Shown piece by piece: positions 34-59,116 of a stretch of 64,000 bases of DNA. The notes under the pieces are model-generated. The model ran no database searches. It was not told where the DNA came from and saw only the letters and a list, made by a program, of their open reading frames with translations. The DNA is from a virus (taxonomy: Duplodnaviria > Caudoviricetes), in the IMG/VR virus record IMGVR_UViG_3300033121_002193, positions 1 through 64,000 of that record; one strand, written 5' to 3'. Position numbers and translations under genes: made by a program. Numbering within the stretch: the first letter of the stretch is position 1; each line of letters opens with the position of its first letter.

Positions 34-627
34 ATGAATTATGCAAAAAACATTCTTATAGCAATGTTGTTAATTATCATTTCCTGCAATCCAGAAAAAG
101 TCAAATATATTATGTATAGCGCAAACTCAGAAGAACATCAAAATGTTATTTCGTATTCGTTTGAATTTTTTAATTCTATTATAGGTTGTGAAGCGGCTGA
201 AATTGTTTTTAATGCTAATGACAATTTTTTGTTTAAAGAAAACAATTTTATTTCAGAAATTGCATTTACAAAAAAATGGGAAATTTGTAATTCAAATACT
301 CCATTTTTTTCTGTTGGATGTATAATTGGATTAGATAAAGATATTGTAATGTTAACAGAAAACACATTTGAAAAATCGAGAAAATGTGAATTAATTTACA
401 ATAAAATTTTAAAAAACTATTTTTATGATTGTGATTATAGAATTATTGGAATTTTACACGAATTGGGTCATTCTTTTGGATTGTCTCATATTAAGAATAA
501 AGATGATATTATGAATGAAATAGGGCCATCTTATGTTTCAATAGAATTATTTGACAATTTTAGAGATGAACTCATAAAAAACACAAATATATGTAAAACG
601 TTTTTTAAAAATCAGATGAATTATTGA
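34..627 (+). CDS. Matrixin/metzincin-like Zn metalloprotease, predicted lipoprotein
   Basis: HELGHSFGLSH (HExxHxxGxxH) followed by a Met-turn (DIM); N-terminal signal with lipobox-like IISC. Confidence 0.75.
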   Translation: MNYAKNILIAMLLIIISCNPEKVKYIMYSANSEEHQNVISYSFEFFNSIIGCEAAEIVFNANDNFLFKENNFISEIAFTKKWEICNSNTPFFSVGCIIGLDKDIVMLTENTFEKSRKCELIYNKILKNYFYDCDYRIIGILHELGHSFGLSHIKNKDDIMNEIGPSYVSIELFDNFRDELIKNTNICKTFFKNQMNY

Positions 628-687: not shown

Positions 688-1253
688 ATGAAAAAAATAA
701 TTTTGTTTGTTTTTTTTCTTATTAAATGCAATTTAGACAATCCAGCAACGTTTATTTATTACGATACAGGAAATGAAAACCATAAACAATTACTAAAAAA
801 CAGTTTTAAAAAAAATAATAATTTTAGTTAGATGCAAAACAATTACCCTTGAAATATCAAACGAGAAAAAAAGATTTTGAATTAAATAATGGAATAACTG
901 AGATTAAATTTGTTGATCAAGAAAAATTATAATCTACAATGATTGAATTAAAAATAGATATTATATACACTGATATTGCAGGATTTTCTGCATTAAAAGA
1001 CAGAGATATTCTTTTTTTAGAAAATAACGCTTTTGAATATTGCATGTATAAAGAATTTGACAAATTAAAATATAATAGATTAGATGTTGTGATTTTTCAT
1101 GAACTAGGGCATGCTTTTGGATTAAGTCATGTTAATGACAATACAGATGTTATGTTTGCATCATGCTTAGCTTCTATTGATCAATTAAATTTTAAGTCTT
1201 TTGCAGATGATTTGCATAAAAAAACAAGAATGTGTAAGGTGACATATGAGTAA
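688..1253 (+). pseudogene. Disrupted paralog of the upstream metalloprotease lipoprotein
   Basis: GGAGA RBS and ATG at 688 (MKKIILFVFFLIKC) ending at TAG 829-831; continuation needs frame changes at poly-A tracts (808-815, ~866-872) and passes an in-frame TAA; C-terminal ORF 939-1253 keeps HELGHAFGLSH...DVM. Confidence 0.65.
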
Positions 1254-2067
1254 AAATGTTGTTGCCTATTTAAGAGTAAGTTCAGAAGGACAAAGTGAAG
1301 ACGGATTTAGCTTAGAAAATCAAATACAAAAAATAAAAATATATGCAATTAACAACAATTTAACATTAAAAAGCAATAATATTTTCATAGATGTTGATAG
1401 TGGTTCTAATCCAAATAGAACAAAATATTTGCAAATGAAAGAGGCTGTTTTAAATGCAGATAATCAAATAGAGGCTGTTTTAGTATATGCAATCGATCGA
1501 TGGACAAGAACCGCAGTCGATGGACTGATGCTGTTTAAAGAATTTGCACAAAAAAACATATCTCTAATTTCTGTATCTGAATTTTTTGACACAAATACAG
1601 CAACAGGAAAACTCTATTGTGGTTTGTTACATCTTTTAGCAGAATTTAATAAAGATGTTTTGATAGATAAATTAACCACAGGAAAAAAACAAATGATAAA
1701 ACAAACTGGCAAATGGGCCGGTGGAATTTCCCCTTATGGGTATAGACCTCTAGGAAAAAGAAAAAAAAGAAATGAAGAAGCTATTTTAAATGGACGCGGA
1801 CAATTGTTAGAAAACAATGAAGAAACAAAAATAGTTCAGTATATTTATTATTTAAAAGATGAAAAAAAAATGAGCTATGGTAAAATTTGTGAAGAATTAA
1901 CCGCACAAAATTACTACAATAGAGTCGGAAAAAACTTTAACAAAGCTACAGTATACAGGATTTTGCAAAGACGAGATTTTTATTTAGGTCAATCTCATAT
2001 AAATTCATCAATCGAATTAGATGATAGTATAAAACCTCAACAACCGAGTATTTTGAATGTTAAATGA
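1246..2067 (+). CDS. Serine recombinase (resolvase catalytic domain + recombinase DNA-binding domain)
   Basis: VAYLRVSS...Q...SLENQ catalytic motif, D-SGS...R, DRWTR, then PYGY and a recombinase-type domain; no C-terminal Zn ribbon/coiled coil. Confidence 0.9.
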   Translation: MSKNVVAYLRVSSEGQSEDGFSLENQIQKIKIYAINNNLTLKSNNIFIDVDSGSNPNRTKYLQMKEAVLNADNQIEAVLVYAIDRWTRTAVDGLMLFKEFAQKNISLISVSEFFDTNTATGKLYCGLLHLLAEFNKDVLIDKLTTGKKQMIKQTGKWAGGISPYGYRPLGKRKKRNEEAILNGRGQLLENNEETKIVQYIYYLKDEKKMSYGKICEELTAQNYYNRVGKNFNKATVYRILQRRDFYLGQSHINSSIELDDSIKPQQPSILNVK

Positions 2068-3046
2068 AATTTTTGATATTGTTTTTTTTGATAATGTGGG
2101 AACTACTTTTACAAGCTCTACTCCTTGTTTTGTGGGGTTAGGAGGCTCCGAGTTACAAATAGTTTTGTTGGCAGAATATTTTGCACAAAAAGGTAAAAAA
2201 GTTTTAGTTTTAAACAATAACTCTTTTCCATGTAAAGAAAATAATGTTTTGTATTATCCAAATGAAGTAATAAAACATAAAAAAATCAAATGTAAGAATT
2301 TGATACTTAACAGATGTTCGAGAATAGAAACTAACAATATTGATTTTTCTTCTTTGATTTTTTTACTGCAAGATATCTATAATCAAGAACACGTTGCTTA
2401 TTTTCAATATATACAGTCTCAATATCCAAAAGTTATATTTGTAACAGTTTCTAATTGGCTAAAATCTATTTTGCCACAAAATTTAAATACGATTGTAATT
2501 CATAATTCAATTCCTGAATGGATTTATGAATTTAAACCGAAACAAAAAAATAACAATAAATTTATTTATTGTAGTGCTGCTTTCAAAGGTCTGGAAGAGA
2601 CTATAGAAGCTTGGAAAAAAATAAAACAAAACAATCAATGTAAAAAAATTGAACTTGTTGTTGCTAATCCTGGATACGATTTAGTTGATGTATCTTTATT
2701 GGAAAAAAATAAAATAAAGTTTTTGGGTAATTTATCATTATTCGATTTAGTTGAAGAAATTGCATCGTCTGCTGGGTTATTTTACGTAAATAAAATTCCA
2801 GAAACTTTTTGCATAGTAGCTGCTTTGGCAAATGCAGTAAAAACAAGAACACATATTTTGTGTATTAATAATTTTGGAGCATTACCTGAAATTCTAAACA
2901 ACAATCAATTAATTACAAATAATTACAACAAATTTACAGAAGATTTTTTGAAATATTATACATCAAATAAGTATGATTTTTTAGATGTTTTTTATAGAAG
3001 TAATGAAATTTGTGTGAATTGGGAAAAGATTTTAATTAAACATTAA
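2057..3046 (+). CDS. GT-B (family 4-like) glycosyltransferase
   Basis: GLGGSE N-terminal motif, KGLE, PETFCI acceptor/donor-site motif. Confidence 0.7.
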   Translation: MLNEIFDIVFFDNVGTTFTSSTPCFVGLGGSELQIVLLAEYFAQKGKKVLVLNNNSFPCKENNVLYYPNEVIKHKKIKCKNLILNRCSRIETNNIDFSSLIFLLQDIYNQEHVAYFQYIQSQYPKVIFVTVSNWLKSILPQNLNTIVIHNSIPEWIYEFKPKQKNNNKFIYCSAAFKGLEETIEAWKKIKQNNQCKKIELVVANPGYDLVDVSLLEKNKIKFLGNLSLFDLVEEIASSAGLFYVNKIPETFCIVAALANAVKTRTHILCINNFGALPEILNNNQLITNNYNKFTEDFLKYYTSNKYDFLDVFYRSNEICVNWEKILIKH

Positions 3047-19046: not shown

Positions 19047-20858
19047 TTATACCTCTCCAAAATAATCAGGTCCCCATACTTTATATTTATCAGAATAAAT
19101 TTTACCATAATTTCCTAGACCTAAATCGCTAGGATACAAAACGGTTATATTCTTTTTAATTCCAGCAGCTGAAGAATCTTTTAAATAATCGATTGCAGAT
19201 TGCCTTGCATTAGCAACGTCGGTCAAATAAGAACCAAAATCAGTGCCGTCTCCTGGTGATGTATATCTATTCTTGCTAAATAAAAGAGTTACATCTGTGC
19301 CCGCGGCGTGTGTAAATTTCCAAACATAAGAAGAATCTATTATAATTTCAGTGCTATTCAAAACTTTCACAAAAGGTACTAAAGTTTCTTCTGTATCATA
19401 ACCAAGATCTATTACTAAAACACCAATGTCTGGAAAGTTATTTGTAGATAATAATTTAATACTGGTACCATTTGTTCCTTGAATTACTATTTGATCTAAT
19501 TTTGTAGAAGTATTTGTATAAACAAATGAATTAAAATCAATTAAATAATTTCCTTGAACAGATGTATCTAATTGAGTAGAAAAAGAAATTAAAACTACGG
19601 ATAAATTACTTTCTTCGCCGATGATGTTTTCTGCAGCCAAAAACTTGCCGTAAACCATGCCTAGAATAGTTAAACCACTAATGGAACTTAAAACAATTCC
19701 AGAAGCACCAGAAATATCTCCGTATACAGTTTCCCCAACGGTAAAAGTTCCTGGTCCATGGTTTAAAGTATAAAAAACTTCTGCTATATAAGCGCCACCA
19801 CTAAACGGGGTTCTTTCTATAATTGTAGTTGAAACAGGTATTATCACATCGATTTCTTGCGGCTTTACTTCATATAAAGTTGCATATTGCTGATTCGATG
19901 TTACTACTTTTTTTTCTGGATAAAAAAACATTAAATCAGTTGCTTGTAATAAAACAACAACTTGAGAAATTCCTTTTTCATTGTTTATTTCAAAATATGC
20001 ATTTCCGACAGAACCATTTACTACTTTTGTTATGGTAAAAGTTCCCTTGTTTAAAAAATCAAAATTACTTCCAAAAACATTTACATAATCATTTTGTTTA
20101 ACAATTCCTAAATTTGGATTTGGACCATTTGTCCAAGTGAATCTAAAAATATTATCAATTGGATTGGATATTGTAAATTCTGTATTTGTTGTTTGTGTTG
20201 TGTTTAATAAAGTGGAAAACTGCAAAATGTTGTTTGCTTTTCCACCTAACACTGAAACTCGACTTCTTGGCCCTTTTGTATTAGATAAAATACGAACTTT
20301 TTTGCTTTTAGAATTGATATCATAATATGATACTGCAAAACCGTTACTGTTTAAATCATGAAGTTTTTGTGTAATAACGTCTGCCACTTCTTCTGCTGTT
20401 GCGTTTCCAATATTTCTAAAATTATCAGTCAAAAAAGTAAATTCATATCTTTCATTATTATCAAAAACAACAATTAAATTATCTCCATCTGATAGTGTAT
20501 AATTTTCCGAAATTTTTGATTCAATCCATGCTTTTGTTTGAAACTGAGAAAAATATATATCTAAAATAGTTAATAGATTATTTGAAATAGTATGATCATT
20601 TAAAGTTTCGCAAATAATTCTTTTAATTATTTCATCTTTTACACCTATATTATTAGGGCGTATGATTCCATAATTACCAGCTAAAGTATCTAAATATTGG
20701 CCAGATGCAGTTTTTACAAACATATTTAAAAACATTGCATCTGAATTTTTTATATTATATTCATCGCCTTGAGAAATGGCATACAAAACGCCATCAATAT
20801 ATTTTCCTGAAATAGCTTGATTAAAATACTGTTTAAAGGTTTCATAAGCAGAAGTCAT
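19047..20858 (-). CDS. Baseplate wedge protein
   Basis: TASGQYLDTLAGNYGIIRP motif typical of wedge proteins; follows baseplate J. Confidence 0.65.
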   Translation of the reverse strand: MTSAYETFKQYFNQAISGKYIDGVLYAISQGDEYNIKNSDAMFLNMFVKTASGQYLDTLAGNYGIIRPNNIGVKDEIIKRIICETLNDHTISNNLLTILDIYFSQFQTKAWIESKISENYTLSDGDNLIVVFDNNERYEFTFLTDNFRNIGNATAEEVADVITQKLHDLNSNGFAVSYYDINSKSKKVRILSNTKGPRSRVSVLGGKANNILQFSTLLNTTQTTNTEFTISNPIDNIFRFTWTNGPNPNLGIVKQNDYVNVFGSNFDFLNKGTFTITKVVNGSVGNAYFEINNEKGISQVVVLLQATDLMFFYPEKKVVTSNQQYATLYEVKPQEIDVIIPVSTTIIERTPFSGGAYIAEVFYTLNHGPGTFTVGETVYGDISGASGIVLSSISGLTILGMVYGKFLAAENIIGEESNLSVVLISFSTQLDTSVQGNYLIDFNSFVYTNTSTKLDQIVIQGTNGTSIKLLSTNNFPDIGVLVIDLGYDTEETLVPFVKVLNSTEIIIDSSYVWKFTHAAGTDVTLLFSKNRYTSPGDGTDFGSYLTDVANARQSAIDYLKDSSAAGIKKNITVLYPSDLGLGNYGKIYSDKYKVWGPDYFGEV

Positions 20859-30787: not shown

Positions 30788-32713
30788 TTATCCTAATTCA
30801 TCAATATCTTGAACTATTTTTTTATTAGAAAAAATCCCATTGTTCGGTTCAGGTTTTAATTCCTGTGAATAACCACCTAAATTTTGATATAATTTTTTTG
30901 TTTTTTCATTTGTTACACCAGCACTTCTAAAATATCCATTAATATTGTCAATTACTTCTAAATCTCCTGATTTATGTGTGCCATGTGATAAAGACAAAGT
31001 TGTCAAAAAAGATGTAATGCCGCTTGGCTGTTCAACAATATATTGATGATCAACTCCCTCTATATGAAAAACAAAATCATTATATTCTAAGTTTTCACCA
31101 ATACAAATAGGCTCTACAATACCAACACATTTAAGAACTCCCGTCAATCTTAAATGCATATTTGCCATAAAATCACTAATTAAAAAATTATAAGTTTCAA
31201 GTTTTTTTACATTATCTTTGTGTTGTGTAGATAGATTAAAATAATCTTGATCTATTTTTGCCTGATATAGTTTCAAACCGTTTCTTTTTACATCATTTGC
31301 ATCATAAACCCATCCAGCTTCACTAATAGCTAAACTATCAACAATAACTGAATAACCAGCAGATGCAAAATCAACATCATTTTTAATAGTCACACAATTA
31401 GTTCTTAAAGCTTCTGTTCTGCCAAATTCGTAACCAACTACCAATGAATTATGAATTTCAAATCTTGGTAAATCCAAATATAAAGTATAAGGTATATCAT
31501 CTTGACTAATATTTACAGTAGATAACATTCCTGCTGTTGATTTTGAAAATTGCGTATTTGTAGTAAACGGAATTTGCCGACAAACTACACTAGGAACAAT
31601 TGGAGATAAAGGGCTAGGTTCTGGTCTTAAACAAAAGTACATTTCGTTTAATAACGGATTGCTGTGTTGTTGTAAAATAGTTTGAATCGTACCGTTAAAA
31701 TTAGGAGATATATTAATTATCTTTCTGCCTGGTAATTTAAACTTATCATTTGACGGTTCCCAATACATCCCGTATTTACGACCATTTGTACCTTTTGCAA
31801 AGTCTCTAACAATAAAATCTGGTCCTAAAACGCCATTATTCCCTTCGTCGAATTTCTGAACTCCGATAAAAACATTAATCAAATCACCATAAGTATGAAA
31901 TTGATTGCTATTTAAAGGCAAATCTCTATTAAATAATTGAGCAATAATTTTAGGAATTCCAAATGTTCCGTTGACCGTTTTCACAGGACTGTCTTTGCCG
32001 CCAGATTCACCAGAACCAGGCCCTAACAATACTTTGTGCCAAAATATAAATTGATCATGAACACTGAAACGTTCTTTAGCTAAAACAGATAAAAAATTAT
32101 TTTTTTCATTGTTAACAAATTTAAAAAAATTATCTGTAAATAATTGATTAGAAACAGTTCCTTGTTCGCCAAGATTTAAAAATGGACTATAGTATATTTG
32201 AGAATTATACTGATCAAAACCTACCCCATTTAATCTGTATCTAATTTCTTTTATTCCAGCACTAACCTGAAAAACTTCTTGAATTGTATAAGCTTTGCCA
32301 AAAAACTTTAATCCACTATCATAACTATTTGCACTTTTACCTGTTTGAATTCTGTCTATTAAATCATCTAATTTGGTATGATCGTTGACAATCCAAGCCA
32401 TCATATAATCACCTGGACAAATTAATGATAAAAAATTTCTTCCACTTGTCAATATGGTAGATAAATTATGTGATATCCCTTGTTTTTTTGTGCTAATACT
32501 CAATGATAATATTTCGCTTGTAATGATAATAGGTTCTGATCTTAATTCTAAATAATCATTTAAATTAATAATTTTATCTTTATTTTTTACAGCAGAAATA
32601 TTGTCTATTTTTCTTTTTCTGTATGGAAAAATAGCAATTAAAGCTCTCGGGCTTTGGAAATGAACATCTCCAGAGTTTGCTTTTAATACAATGTTTTTGT
32701 ATTTATTAGACAT
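30788..32713 (-). CDS. Baseplate hub protein
   Basis: Between tape measure and spike; C-terminal G...ICIGENL...FHIEGVDH...TTLSLSHG pattern. Confidence 0.65.
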   Translation of the reverse strand: MSNKYKNIVLKANSGDVHFQSPRALIAIFPYRKRKIDNISAVKNKDKIINLNDYLELRSEPIIITSEILSLSISTKKQGISHNLSTILTSGRNFLSLICPGDYMMAWIVNDHTKLDDLIDRIQTGKSANSYDSGLKFFGKAYTIQEVFQVSAGIKEIRYRLNGVGFDQYNSQIYYSPFLNLGEQGTVSNQLFTDNFFKFVNNEKNNFLSVLAKERFSVHDQFIFWHKVLLGPGSGESGGKDSPVKTVNGTFGIPKIIAQLFNRDLPLNSNQFHTYGDLINVFIGVQKFDEGNNGVLGPDFIVRDFAKGTNGRKYGMYWEPSNDKFKLPGRKIINISPNFNGTIQTILQQHSNPLLNEMYFCLRPEPSPLSPIVPSVVCRQIPFTTNTQFSKSTAGMLSTVNISQDDIPYTLYLDLPRFEIHNSLVVGYEFGRTEALRTNCVTIKNDVDFASAGYSVIVDSLAISEAGWVYDANDVKRNGLKLYQAKIDQDYFNLSTQHKDNVKKLETYNFLISDFMANMHLRLTGVLKCVGIVEPICIGENLEYNDFVFHIEGVDHQYIVEQPSGITSFLTTLSLSHGTHKSGDLEVIDNINGYFRSAGVTNEKTKKLYQNLGGYSQELKPEPNNGIFSNKKIVQDIDELG

Positions 32714-38597: not shown

Positions 38598-41465
38598 TTA
38601 AGCTGTTTGAGTTACTTGCGATACGTTTAAAGTAATTGGAACAAACGCAATTGCATTTGTAATGTACACGTTAACATTTACTCGCATAACTGGACCTGAT
38701 ATTTGAACTGATGCCGCATCAAATCCGGCTGGAGCCCCATCGCTTGGTGAAATTAATTTGTTTTGCAAATATTGATCCATTTTGTATTTTAAAAATACTA
38801 AAGCATTTGCTGCAGAAATATCAGAAATTGCTTGACCAACAGCAAAATTATCAAAAGATTGTAATAAATCTAAAGCCATAAAATCTGCTGTGTACATTAC
38901 CTGTAAACTATTAAAGACAAAATTATTATCTTTGCCATAAGTAGTTTGATCACTTACCCAACGGAAACCACCGGTAGGTGGATTTTCTAATATTAATAAT
39001 CCTGACAAAATGGCGTCTTCTAATTGTCCATTGTTTCTCGGATTAAAATCATTAAACGGTGTAATTATTCCTGATATGTTTGCATACTTGTGCATTATTG
39101 ATTTATACAAACCAATTGCTTGCATAGAGGCTGCAACTGCAGCAGTGTACCAGGGTTGAAACTGCACGATATTACCAGAAATTCCGACAGCCTTTACGTC
39201 TTGAAATGTAAGCGCAACTCTTGCAGATGCCAAATTTTGAGCTTGTATTTTGCAATTTGCATATGTATTTCTATAAGACAAAACCGCAAGTCTGTTTTTT
39301 CTCATTTTAATTTGAGACATTGCCAAAACATGACTTTTTGTATATGCATTTATAGCGTCAATAGTATATGTAGAACTCACATCGGTCAAACCATCTACAA
39401 TATCTAATGATGCGTCTCTGCTAAACAAAGGAACTATGAAATTACAATCAATATCTGCCAATTTGTCAATTGTCGCAATAACCGCAGCACCAGAGGTTCC
39501 TGCTTTTGTTCCACCAGCAAAAAATGTTGGCATTAAACTGGATTCTGGCAAACCTGCAACAGCAATGCTTGTAAAAGACACGTTAGAAGAAAGAGCTAAT
39601 TTTGTTTTAAAATCGTACAAATCTCTTTTAATTCTACAAGGATATAAAGTTCCAGCTGTTGAAGTAGCACACGAATATACACCTTGATCTAAAATAGTGG
39701 GCGATAATTGCCCCACAGAAGCAGTTGCAACCGCAGCAGTATAACCCGTTTGTGAATTAATATATCCGACTAAATCTGATAAAGTTGGATAATTTGAGAA
39801 ATTTAAAGTCAAATTTGCGCCAGATCCGCCAGTTACAGAAGTCGATAAAGAAGTTCCAGTAACAGTAACTGTTGCGGTTGTTCCTACATAAGAAAGTTTA
39901 AGAGCAACATTGCCACCTATTGCCGTATATGATTCTTGTAAATTATCCGTAGAACGACTAATTAACAAATTAGCTTGATAATCTATTCCAGCCACGAAAT
40001 AAGGAATTGATGCTGTAGAAATCCATGTTGCAGCAGTAGTAGTTCCTAAATTATAAAATACTTGATTTACATTTCTTGTTCCGCCACCATCTGAAAGTTC
40101 AAAACCTAATTGAATTCCATCAATCCAAGGACGAGATACTCTTGCGTCATTATCAGGGGTTGCACTAAAAGTAGTCGCAGCTACGTTTACCGGTGAGCCA
40201 TTAGATAATCTAGCAGCAATACAATATGCGGAACTAGTAACATTGTTAACTGTACTGACTGTGTAATATCCAACATTAGCATTTCCTGCCCCCGAGATAG
40301 AAGACCCACTTGGTATATAAAAAATATCTCCAACCCTTGGAGCATTAGCTCCTTGCGCAAAAGCAGTAGCGCCTGTTAAATTTAATCGTAAATTTGCACC
40401 AGATGCAGTTACAGAAACGCCTGCACTTGCCAATGCAGCAAATGAATTTCTGTTTGTGCCCGATTTGTCAGTTATTGACATTGGGCTATACACTTGCATA
40501 TCATTTGTTACTGTTGCGCTAAATGGAGTTGCAACAACACTTACAGGGGCGGTCACGGTTGCATTTACGTGATCTGCTACCTTGGTTGCCGTAATAAACG
40601 CAGATAAAGTGGTATTAGAAACAGATGTAACAACATATGTTCCTAAATTTGCACTGCCAGCACCAGCGAAAGCCGAATCAGCAGTTGCTCCATATAATGT
40701 ATTTGCGGGTAACACTAATAAATCACCAGGAACAGGAGTCGTTGCAAATACACTTCCGGCTGCTAATGTAAATGTTGCAGAATTTCCAGCAGCAACCGTT
40801 GTTACATTTATTGTTGCCAAACCAGTAAAAGCACTTCTATTTACACCGCCAGTTGCTAATAAAGATCCACTTGTTAATGTAGAAACTAATGTATTAGGAG
40901 GTATGTTCGGATTTATTGTCAAAGAAGTATTTGCCCCACCTCTAATTCTATAATTTAAAATAGCAGAAGTGGCCGCACTTGGAACAGGAATATAACTAAA
41001 AGTTCCTGTTGTTGGAGCTATTGCATTGGTATAAACTGATGTTTCCCATTTTAAATTACTACCATTTGCGCCAGCTTTTAAAGCAGATAAAGTGCCATAA
41101 GTCGTAGATATTGTTGGAATTGCACTTGAAGCAATTGTGCTAGGATTTGTTTTATATAAATAAATCCTAGTTACACTTCCCGGAAGGTTTGGGTCGTTTG
41201 CGGGAGCAACTGCCGCTTTAAAGGCTTCAACCAATGGGCCTGATGTATATTTATTAATTACATCACCCATTTGAGAAGGGGTGTAATAATTCAAAGACAG
41301 GTCTTCGGTAGCCGCGCTAGTCGCCAAGCCTTCGTCTGCTTCTCCGATTAAAGCTAAAATACCAGCTACACCAATTCCAGAAGCAGGAGTTTGTACATTT
41401 AATCTAGTATAAGCGCCAGGGATAATTAATGTCCCAAAATCAGAAGAAGAATATGTAAGTGCCAT
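38598..41465 (-). CDS. Contractile tail sheath protein
   Basis: IIPGAY...LALIGEADEG N-terminus; C-terminal RWVSDQTTY...VPITLNV; two inserted repeat domains. Confidence 0.88.
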   Translation of the reverse strand: MALTYSSSDFGTLIIPGAYTRLNVQTPASGIGVAGILALIGEADEGLATSAATEDLSLNYYTPSQMGDVINKYTSGPLVEAFKAAVAPANDPNLPGSVTRIYLYKTNPSTIASSAIPTISTTYGTLSALKAGANGSNLKWETSVYTNAIAPTTGTFSYIPVPSAATSAILNYRIRGGANTSLTINPNIPPNTLVSTLTSGSLLATGGVNRSAFTGLATINVTTVAAGNSATFTLAAGSVFATTPVPGDLLVLPANTLYGATADSAFAGAGSANLGTYVVTSVSNTTLSAFITATKVADHVNATVTAPVSVVATPFSATVTNDMQVYSPMSITDKSGTNRNSFAALASAGVSVTASGANLRLNLTGATAFAQGANAPRVGDIFYIPSGSSISGAGNANVGYYTVSTVNNVTSSAYCIAARLSNGSPVNVAATTFSATPDNDARVSRPWIDGIQLGFELSDGGGTRNVNQVFYNLGTTTAATWISTASIPYFVAGIDYQANLLISRSTDNLQESYTAIGGNVALKLSYVGTTATVTVTGTSLSTSVTGGSGANLTLNFSNYPTLSDLVGYINSQTGYTAAVATASVGQLSPTILDQGVYSCATSTAGTLYPCRIKRDLYDFKTKLALSSNVSFTSIAVAGLPESSLMPTFFAGGTKAGTSGAAVIATIDKLADIDCNFIVPLFSRDASLDIVDGLTDVSSTYTIDAINAYTKSHVLAMSQIKMRKNRLAVLSYRNTYANCKIQAQNLASARVALTFQDVKAVGISGNIVQFQPWYTAAVAASMQAIGLYKSIMHKYANISGIITPFNDFNPRNNGQLEDAILSGLLILENPPTGGFRWVSDQTTYGKDNNFVFNSLQVMYTADFMALDLLQSFDNFAVGQAISDISAANALVFLKYKMDQYLQNKLISPSDGAPAGFDAASVQISGPVMRVNVNVYITNAIAFVPITLNVSQVTQTA

Positions 41466-57148: not shown

Positions 57149-57208
57149 AGTAAATAAAGAATACGTTATAACGCTGAATTTTTTTTTGATAAAATATTAG
57201 GAGATAAT

Positions 57209-58762
57209 ATGATTAAAATACTATGTTTGTTTGTTTCTTTTTTTCCGTTTTGTATATTTGCCAATGAAGTAAATTTTCAAAAATTAAATTTGAATTCAAT
57301 TGATTACAACCAACCACTAATTATTAAAAAAGAAGACAGAATAGCAAAAGAAAGACATGATAGTTACGTTGGTTTTGGTTTTTGTAACAAAACAACTAGA
57401 TTTACAAGTGTTGCTGATTTACAAAACATAACAGATGCAATAACAGTCATGTTTGCACCACTTTTTAGTTCTGTAAATATCAACGGAAATATATTTACTC
57501 CAGTTGAAACAAAAAGTATTATAACTCAAGAATTAGATTTAAAAAAATGGCAAGATTTAAGCTCCATTGGAGACTTTAATTCATATCTTAGTTCTGATTT
57601 TTCGTTTTCTAAATTGCCATATAATGGAACAAAAATATTATCTAGATTTATTGGCTATTGGAATGTTAAAATTCCAATCGAAGGTACAATTGGGTTAAAT
57701 TCAGATGATGGCGCTTTAATTATTTTAGGGAATCAACCTTTTATATATTCTGCTGGTTTAAATCCAGGGAAAAGGCTAACAAGAAAATATAAATTCGAAT
57801 CTAGTGGTTTATATCCTGTTTATGTTTTTTATTATCAAAATTTAAACTCTTCCTATTTAGAAGTAAGCGACTTACTCGGTGAACCAACAAATAATAATTT
57901 CATGTTTGGAGAAACAGATATTCCATTAAACTTATTAGAAAATACAACTGTAATAAACGAAGATGGCAGCTATGCAAAAATGGAAATATTTGGAAATGAA
58001 AATATTTACACAACTATTATAGACCAACCACCATATACTTGTGAAATGTGTAATTATGACAGCGACTGTACTGTTGGAAATAAATGTTTATATGGTTTGT
58101 GTCAAAATATAAAACAAGTATGTGTTACTACAGATTTTTGTGGTAATAATTGTCAAGCTTGTCCAGTCGGAAGTAATGTGTGTGTAGACGGAAAATGTAT
58201 AGAATGTAATCAAGACTCAAACTGTTTTTTAAATCAGATATGTAAAAACAATAAGTGCATTCCAAAACCACCTGAATGCACTCAAGATATTGATTGTAAA
58301 TATACCTGGACGACAACTGAATATATTTGTAATAAAACATTGCTTAAATGCGAACTAAAAAAACCTGAATGCTCAATAAATACAGATTGTAAAGATAATC
58401 AAATTTGTAATTTGCAAAACAAATGCCAAGATAAAGTAGAAAATCCAATTTACAACTGCGATAAAGATGAAAATTGTATGTTAATACAATATTGCGATTT
58501 AACTTCAAAAATTTGTAAAAAATTGCCTCAAAACGGGTGTCGAATTCAATTACAATGCTTACAAAATTATACTTGCGATACTGCTGCACATTTATGTATT
58601 GAGAATAAAGATAATAAAACAGATGATTCAACAGAACAAAAGCCGAAAGCAATAGAAAACAAAGGTTGTAATCAATCGTCTTTAAATGGAAGTATAAATA
58701 TTCTCCTTGTTGCTTTTATTATATTCTATAAAAAAATAAAACATTTAACTATATTTACTTGA
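57209..58762 (+). CDS. TraA-like cell-surface protein (PA14-like domain, Cys-rich repeats, MYXO-CTERM-like anchor)
   Basis: Signal peptide; GFGFC; SRFIGYWNV...GLNSDDG...FESSGLYPV.V.YYQN...YLEVS; ~7 C-xx-D-x-D/N-C repeats; C-terminal KGC-linker-hydrophobic helix-KKIK. Confidence 0.75.
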   Translation: MIKILCLFVSFFPFCIFANEVNFQKLNLNSIDYNQPLIIKKEDRIAKERHDSYVGFGFCNKTTRFTSVADLQNITDAITVMFAPLFSSVNINGNIFTPVETKSIITQELDLKKWQDLSSIGDFNSYLSSDFSFSKLPYNGTKILSRFIGYWNVKIPIEGTIGLNSDDGALIILGNQPFIYSAGLNPGKRLTRKYKFESSGLYPVYVFYYQNLNSSYLEVSDLLGEPTNNNFMFGETDIPLNLLENTTVINEDGSYAKMEIFGNENIYTTIIDQPPYTCEMCNYDSDCTVGNKCLYGLCQNIKQVCVTTDFCGNNCQACPVGSNVCVDGKCIECNQDSNCFLNQICKNNKCIPKPPECTQDIDCKYTWTTTEYICNKTLLKCELKKPECSINTDCKDNQICNLQNKCQDKVENPIYNCDKDENCMLIQYCDLTSKICKKLPQNGCRIQLQCLQNYTCDTAAHLCIENKDNKTDDSTEQKPKAIENKGCNQSSLNGSINILLVAFIIFYKKIKHLTIFT

Positions 58763-58861: not shown

Positions 58862-59116
58862 ATGAATTTTGGCGAAATATTAGAAAGTTTAAAAAAAGGG
58901 AACAGTGCGGCACGAATGGGTTGGAATGGAAAAGGTATTTTTATTGCAATACAACAACCCGATGAAAACAGCAAAATGACCGCTCCTTATATTTATATAG
59001 ATACAACAGGTCTTAAAACAGATAATATTTATTCGCCAAAAAAACTAGTTCCATGGTTTGCTAGCCAAACAGATATATTAGCAGAAGACTGGTTTGTTGT
59101 AAAAGAAGAAGATTGA
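58862..59116 (+). CDS. DUF2829/Tad2-family anti-defence sponge protein
   Basis: MNFGE.LE.LKKG...ARMGWNGKG.F...PY.YI...VPW.ASQTDILAEDW family signature. Confidence 0.85.
   Translation: MNFGEILESLKKGNSAARMGWNGKGIFIAIQQPDENSKMTAPYIYIDTTGLKTDNIYSPKKLVPWFASQTDILAEDWFVVKEED

Follow-up and report, generated by a model that had tools for sequence, protein, structure and literature searches.

In this study I describe a gene for a TraA-like protein in a phage genome (Duplodnaviria; Caudoviricetes), IMG/VR virus record IMGVR_UViG_3300033121_002193, the first 64 kb of which (64,000 of 135,485 bp) form the window. The open reading frame (ORF) 57209..58762 on the plus strand encodes a product of 517 amino acids (aa), P0001, which, as judged from its sequence, is a true but distant homolog of TraA, belonging to a wider superfamily outside the curated TraA equivalog. 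TraA is the receptor by which myxobacteria identify their kin, and together with its partner TraB it forms the best-understood bacterial system for kin discrimination and outer-membrane sharing. I consider it fairly probable, at roughly 0.6, that P0001 is a TraA-family surface contact protein specified by the phage for the infected cell, and infected cells probably display this phage-made contact protein. From its 5' to its 3' end, the gene consists of the following elements:

57199..57203 (+), ribosome-binding site AGGAG, 5 nucleotides (nt) 5' of the ATG, read from the sequence
57209..57265 (+), Sec-type signal peptide, residues 1-19, ending in ...FCIFA/NE in the translation, its position kept in 8/8 phage homologs
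57266..58033 (+), TraA_N / PA14-like head, residues 20-275, from hhalign, a weak TIGR04566 match, Foldseek and a predicted local distance difference test score (pLDDT) of ~90
58034..58609 (+), stalk of seven Cys-rich repeats, residues 276-467, with Cys columns invariant in alignments A1 and A2 and hairpin repeats in the model
58610..58663 (+), polar low-complexity linker, residues 468-485, predicted to be disordered (pLDDT <50 at 469-494)
58664..58762 (+), MYXO-CTERM-like tripartite tag of Gly-Cys487, transmembrane (TM) helix, Lys-rich tail and stop, from the sequence, with a helix at 496-516 in the model

All the features named in the sequence-only reading (a signal peptide, GFGFC, a PA14 core, seven repeats and a Cys-TM-basic tail) were found in the translation. 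GFGFC occupies residues 55-59, and its G57 and C59 are invariant in phage and cellular relatives, the counterpart in canonical TraA being GTGLC. The motifs of the PA14 core are SRFIGYWNV (145-153), NSDDG (164-168), GLYPVYVFYYQ (200-210) and YLEVS (216-220), and the seven Cys-rich repeats lie between residues ~278 and ~465 of a protein with 35 Cys in all. The linker is the least conserved segment (15% mean identity). In translation the tail reads ...KGCNQSS-LNGSINILLVAFIIFY-KKIKH..., in which C487 is invariant across the phage clade; the MYXO-CTERM tag has been defined by an invariant Cys, a TM helix and an Arg-rich tail (PMC11980579). The GC content around the gene is 25-26%; the phage as a whole has 30%, and the inserts with insertion sequence (IS) and restriction-modification (R-M) genes have 38-46%, so the AT-rich gene resembles the phage backbone and not the IS cargo, as had been noticed before. 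Scans for a promoter and a terminator gave nothing above the level of shuffled sequences. P0001 is the only TraA_N-like gene of the record, and a scan of all ORFs of the record did not reveal a second protein combining a signal peptide, a high Cys content and a C-terminal anchor.

The homology to TraA is apparent from profile comparisons. A canonical traA set was fetched from Myxococcota genomes, in which 13/151 scored above the cut-off of the NCBIfam model exchanger_TraA (NF033759), and six were aligned; canonical traA genes reach 1080-1180 bits on this model. When the profile of the eight phage-clade proteins was compared with these six by hhalign, a probability of 99.8% was obtained (E 1.5e-27, 386 columns), and the alignment covers both head and stalk, residues 43-472 of the phage protein being matched to 6-454 of TraA. 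Searched against 401 Myxococcota genomes, the phage-clade profile finds its best matches, with E values as low as 4e-23, within canonical traA genes, and the Cys repeats of P0001 align with those of TraA in the NF033759 hidden Markov model (HMM) as well as in hhalign. The nearest cluster in the ESM Atlas is 'TraA', with PF27866 on 100% of its members (score 0.96), and precomputed matches to PF27866 (Myxo_TraA_N) exist for the relatives P0002 (weak), P0004, P0005, P0006, P0007 and P0008. TIGR04201, a Cys-rich repeat type, gave no more than a weak match, on the relative P0004.

A HMMER search of 1.84 billion representatives yielded 73 relatives of P0001. The seven nearest are low-GC proteins of 458-525 aa with 34-87% identity, followed by proteins of 420-480 aa on high-GC contigs, which are 26-33% identical over nearly the full length, show the same motifs and a Cys-TM-Arg tail, and score 37-52 bits on myxo_TraA_Nterm. 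In trees of the head domain, from which the MXAN_4924-type paralogs (identified by inspection) are left out, the eight phage-type proteins form one clade with a Shimodaira-Hasegawa approximate likelihood ratio test (SH-aLRT) support of 97, which is set apart from the canonical Myxococcaceae clade and from mixed 'short/fusion' cellular clades and has no cellular sequence nested within it. As this phage-only clade stands apart from the canonical one, P0001 is placed outside the TraA equivalog. The phylogeny with chromosomal TraA thus gives the phage proteins a clade of their own, and the profile comparison bears out their homology to TraA; what can be retained of the initial identification as a TraA homolog is the genuine relationship and the same domain order, but not membership of the canonical clade.

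With the TraA of the Myxococcaceae (NF033759; TIGR04566/PF27866; PMC3325183, PMC11980579) P0001 shares the signal peptide, GxGxC, the PA14-like head, the Cys stalk, the linker and the Cys-TM-basic tag. However, it is shorter (~517 aa and seven repeats, versus ~700 aa and nine or more repeats), 26% identical and far below the curated cut-offs, and it is phage-encoded at ~26% GC, with no traB downstream or elsewhere in the record; where the TraA operon continues with traB, the gene downstream of P0001 is Tad2-like. Its tail is rich in Lys and leaves the MYXO-CTERM HMM silent, and, in contrast to the polymorphic head of TraA, its head shows no hypervariability in the single close pair available. 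The architecture of P0001 recurs in short MXAN_4924-type paralogs of ~490-526 aa (PMC3325183; L071-L073, L075), likewise without adjacent traB. Unlike P0001, these remain near canonical TraA (400-460 bits on NF033759) and carry a textbook GCGC...RRGRR tag, whereas the phage clade branches deeply and on its own. The nearest cellular sequences are short TraA-like proteins (P0010-P0021) and the fusions P0009, P0023 and P0025. They are 26-34% identical to P0001 and share its motifs and the style of its tail, but they are cellular, have 65-72% GC and are often fused to or located next to TraB. In the fusions P0009, P0023 (L010 6587-9580) and P0025, of ~1000 aa, a TraA-like head and stalk, a TraB barrel and an OmpA domain are combined; these single chains score 185-362 bits on exchanger_TraB and, by their domain content, are a one-gene version of the traAB pair.

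The fold of P0001 was modelled with AlphaFold2 from a 15-sequence alignment. In the model (mean pLDDT 81, head ~90), the head is a beta-sandwich and the repeats form a chain of small hairpins, after which come a disordered linker and a helix at the C-terminal end; pLDDT is low for the signal-peptide helix (residues 2-16). Compared with the PDB by Foldseek, the head has PA14 adhesin domains as all of its best 37 matches (Epa/Flo/Cea1 and MpIBP, the Marinomonas RTX adhesin; best E 6e-7), a resemblance already published for TraA (PMC3325183). The Pfam PA14 HMM (PF07691) gives 12.4 bits (E 0.14) against a gathering threshold of 24. The best-matching adhesins (Epa1/6/9, Flo1/5, Cea1 and the Marinomonas protein, E 6e-7 to 1e-4) have in common with P0001 a PA14 head on a C-terminally anchored stalk, but the identity is 9-14%, the chemistry of stalk and anchor differs, and the calcium-binding Asp-Asp pair of the adhesins is not kept across the phage clade.

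At 50% identity, the phage-type proteins fall into eight clusters, 7/8 of which are seen amid phage genes; the exception is P0007, the only gene on a 1.6-kb contig whose GC is similar. Contigs that carry such genes are up to 148 kb long and have 29-38% GC. The gene is an accessory of these phages, variable in position and copy number, and usually follows an HU-like gene and a gene of 168-174 aa, while in one related phage it adjoins the tail-fibre/baseplate module. In one phage lineage (L003/L004 4965-7982, L005, L007), two TraA-like paralogs, 458 aa and 520 aa long, lie in tandem, and the shorter type (P0008) branches deepest within the phage clade. The closest relative of P0001 is 87% identical at the amino acid level, with flanks 91% identical in nt, and between these two the ratio of nonsynonymous to synonymous substitution rates (dN/dS) is 0.13 overall, with values of 0.12 for the head, 0.14 for the stalk and 0.06 for the tag. 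The value of 0.13 indicates purifying selection, and the P0001 gene is functional. In this single close pair, nothing points to diversifying selection on the head, and deeper members of the clade are 35-45% identical throughout, their heads being no more variable than their stalks. On the strength of these comparisons, the P0001 clade is conserved under purifying selection in low-GC myoviruses related to Myxococcus phage Mx1. No homolog of P0001 is present in 50,697 GenBank phages, Mx1 included, and no description of a phage-encoded TraA was found in the literature searched, in agreement with the initial remark that no such phage system was known.

The relationship with Mx1 is based on three large structural proteins. 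The tail sheath (954 aa, window 38598-41465, minus strand) shares 41.9% identity with the Mx1 sheath (OR576727.2) across 99% of its length, while its next matches among GenBank phages cover a quarter of the protein at 24% identity. Two further large proteins, at 19047-20858 (-) and 30788-32713 (-) of the window, match Mx1 alone among the 50,697 GenBank phages. Most other large ORFs of the record have no PHROG match, which marks this as a very poorly sampled phage lineage. By these proteins the phage, with a record of 30.3% GC and an estimated completeness of 84%, is an uncultured, large and distant relative of Mx1. The observation that its traA-like gene comes without traB could be extended from the window to the whole record, in which, at this completeness, no candidates for traB (NF033763) were found; neither was traB present within the fetched flanks of the related phage loci. 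The record has no match to a myxosortase-type protease of the Rce1/CPBP kind, nor does it contain a tyrosine integrase, one small serine resolvase being present. Because no tyrosine integrase was found, the scenarios that involve lysogens, put forward on the letters alone, lack a basis in the record and were set aside.

What is observed in P0001 are sequence features and homology, and the later steps of the proposed mechanism follow the sorting model of TraA (PMC11980579). During infection, Sec would export the P0001 precursor, which would be held in the inner membrane by its C-terminal helix. A MYXO-CTERM-type pathway of the host could then process the protein at Cys487, by lipidation, myxosortase-like cleavage and outward transport, after which the infected cell would carry the PA14 head on its surface, mounted on a rigid disulfide stalk. 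In this position, the head may bind a partner on neighbouring cells, be it a like head, a TraA-type receptor of the host or a glycan, and P0001 would thereby alter the adhesion partners of the infected cell. Any action on outer-membrane exchange would have to use the TraB of the host, as the phage brings no traB, and exchange is known to require both TraA and TraB, with TraB in both partner cells (PMC3325183).

As for the host, the kinship with Mx1 points to a Myxococcota-type bacterium, and the great majority of TraA and TraB family members come from Myxococcota. Such a host is also favoured because a Cys-TM-basic tag that is invariant and strongly constrained would call for a sorting pathway to go with it (PMC11980579). 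Cys-repeat proteins with tails of similar style are encoded on cellular contigs of lower GC (37-40%), in one case with an adjoining traB. In that case, a 115-kb metagenomic contig of 40% GC (L019 608-6934), a 748-aa TraA-like protein with an enlarged head is directly followed by traB (347 bits), and the product of the third adjoining gene (777 aa) has a Leptospira Len-like / DUF1554 domain; the TraB of L019 is 34-39% identical to TraB in the 401 Myxococcota genomes, too little for the organism to be placed. Pattern scans of genomes and metagenomes for a host copy returned generic PA14 proteins only, such as a double-PA14 protein of Balneolaceae without Cys repeats, and nothing was found in a pattern scan of viral contigs. 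The IS1 transposase near the gene resembles copies on alphaproteobacterial plasmids, at most 65%.

Several observations weigh against P0001 as a contact protein sorted and displayed in the manner of TraA. On P0001, NF033759 gives 23.5 bits (E 1.8e-5) where the cut-off is 750, and this in the Cys repeats only, while TIGR04566 (myxo_TraA_Nterm) gives 16.4 bits on residues 115-225 where 80 are needed. The MYXO-CTERM HMM TIGR03901 finds nothing up to an E value of 1, and Lys rather than Arg prevails in the tail; on the cellular relative P0012 the same HMM reaches 16.6 bits against a cut-off of 20. The 30% GC of the phage contrasts with ~65-72% in the fetched cellular TraA loci, the best match in the 401 sampled Myxococcota genomes scores only 82 bits and represents no host-like copy, and the named relatives of an IS1595 transposase in the window are all from Bacteroidota (57-70%). 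The Myxococcota host proposed in the sequence-only reading is supported by the kinship with Mx1 (the sheath and two further proteins) but not by base composition. As regards exchange, a TraA paralog of the same architecture in M. xanthus has no exchange role and is TraB-independent (PMC3325183), which speaks against any variant involving exchange; architecture alone does not imply exchange.

What such a contact protein would do can be envisaged in different ways. In the boldest version, which I regard as unlikely, a virulent phage of a myxobacterium-like host would expose a TraA mimic on infected cells and couple it to the TraB machinery of that host, thereby rewiring or jamming kin recognition and exchange; paired with host TraB, the phage protein could confer a new recognition type, dock the cell on uninfected kin or act as a dominant-negative block. 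Consistent with this, the homology to TraA spans both head and stalk, the head is repeatedly fused or adjacent to TraB in cellular relatives, the tandem paralogs of some phages would fit several specificities, and the dependence of exchange on both proteins makes it plausible that a phage with TraA only makes use of the TraB of its host (PMC3325183). However, the head is under purifying rather than diversifying selection (dN/dS 0.12 in one close pair), and the phage clade is so diverged from all cellular TraA, none of which nests within it, that a fit with host TraB or TraA is doubtful. The same-build paralog without an exchange role (PMC3325183) is a further argument against it and, because it has no such role, indicates that this build can work without TraB. 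P0001 may then be a TraB-independent lectin or adhesin comparable to the MXAN_4924-type paralogs, a possible though still tentative explanation, in which the PA14 head would bind a surface glycan or protein, with clumping of cells as a result, or masking of the phage receptor (superinfection exclusion, or progeny freed from lysed cells). In favour of this, 517 aa and the overall build match the ~490-526-aa Myxococcaceae paralogs that have MYXO-CTERM but no adjacent traB and one of which lacks an exchange phenotype (PMC3325183), the nearest solved folds are sugar-binding PA14 adhesins, the gene is found amid genes for host takeover and anti-defence (HU, Tad2, R-M), and Asp166-Asp167 of P0001 aligns with Asp183/Asp184 of TraA, a proposed calcium site (PMC3325183). 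This Asp-Asp pair is not kept across the phage clade, though, as relatives have NANDG, NTSTG or NTDTA instead, and the phage clade lies apart from the canonical TraA clade, to which the short paralogs, themselves not in the tree, score closely. Given that short TraA paralogs of the same build exist without traB, one of them exchange-neutral, a TraB-independent role as adhesin or receptor mask appears at least as likely as a hijack of exchange.

Alternatively, the host may not be a myxobacterium at all, and P0001 may be a C-terminally anchored inner-membrane protein facing the periplasm, the repurposed product of an old capture of a TraA-like gene. The 30% GC of the phage, the Bacteroidota affiliation of the named IS1595 relatives, the silent MYXO-CTERM HMM and the lack of a close cellular copy among the 401 Myxococcota genomes would all agree with this. 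I nevertheless think it quite improbable, as the sheath shares 42% identity with its Mx1 counterpart across 99% of its length and Mx1 is the sole match of two other proteins, the Cys that precedes the helix never varies and no other region is as constrained as the tag, and tails of the same style occur in cellular contigs of 37-40% GC, one with an adjoining traB. Moreover, a 96% identical copy of the IS1595 transposase is present in related phages, not in cells, so that this element says little about the host. PA14 domains also occur in phage tail proteins, and in one related phage the gene adjoins the tail-fibre or baseplate module, which would suit a receptor-binding or decoration protein of the virion. 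Most phages of the clade, including this one, carry the gene among non-structural genes, and PHROG gives no structural matches, the sole match being a weak one of the signal-peptide region to a PHROG of unknown function. A cleavable signal peptide, a membrane anchor and a disulfide-rich stalk indicate export rather than assembly in the cytoplasm, and a virion protein, which I take to be extremely improbable, was rejected on account of the signal peptide, the C-terminal anchor and the stalk. A TraA-family contact protein on the infected cell is my preferred reading of P0001.

The neighbourhood of P0001, which also holds an HU-like protein and an IS1-family transposase, includes the following genes:

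58862-59116 (+), Tad2-like protein (Thoeris anti-defence 2, PF11195), E 6e-22, 78 bits versus a cut-off of 25, directly downstream of P0001
49705-55412 (+), IS1595 transposase and type III R-M pair (Mod 665 aa, Res 926 aa), forming one module

Copies of the IS1595/R-M module were found at a different site, adjoining a PHP-domain gene, in two related phage contigs (L076 10001-15708 and L077 1271-6978). Given the 96% identical transposase copy at another place in these two contigs, this R-M-carrying IS appears to move among phage genomes. At 1246-3046 (+) of the window, a small serine resolvase is followed by a group-1 glycosyltransferase-like gene. In the related phage L015 (6072-11578), this resolvase/glycosyltransferase module runs into the TraA-like gene, by convergent tail-fibre genes, whereas in the window it is broken up by the IS/R-M cassette. 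A predicted lipoprotein with the lipobox LIIISC is encoded at 34-627 (+) of the window; its match to a matrixin-type zinc-protease motif is weak (Peptidase_M10, E 9.5e-5, below cut-off), and two similar genes are present in L015.

Mobile elements, prophages included, carry toxins that are delivered by outer-membrane exchange, but prophages are not known to carry the receptor. A TraA clade that is confined to phages and maintained by selection suggests that these phages devote resources to changing the surface that an infected cell presents, which raises the question whether viruses alter cell-cell contact, aggregation or membrane sharing of bacteria, and also whether sorting of the MYXO-CTERM type exists outside the high-GC myxobacteria. 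In addition, the TraA-like gene offers a handle on the host of a widespread uncultured relative of Mx1. Should the hijack of exchange prove true, this would be the first known virus to manipulate bacterial social recognition, and the phage could gain membrane material from healthy neighbours, spread of receptor to new cells and escape from toxin delivery.

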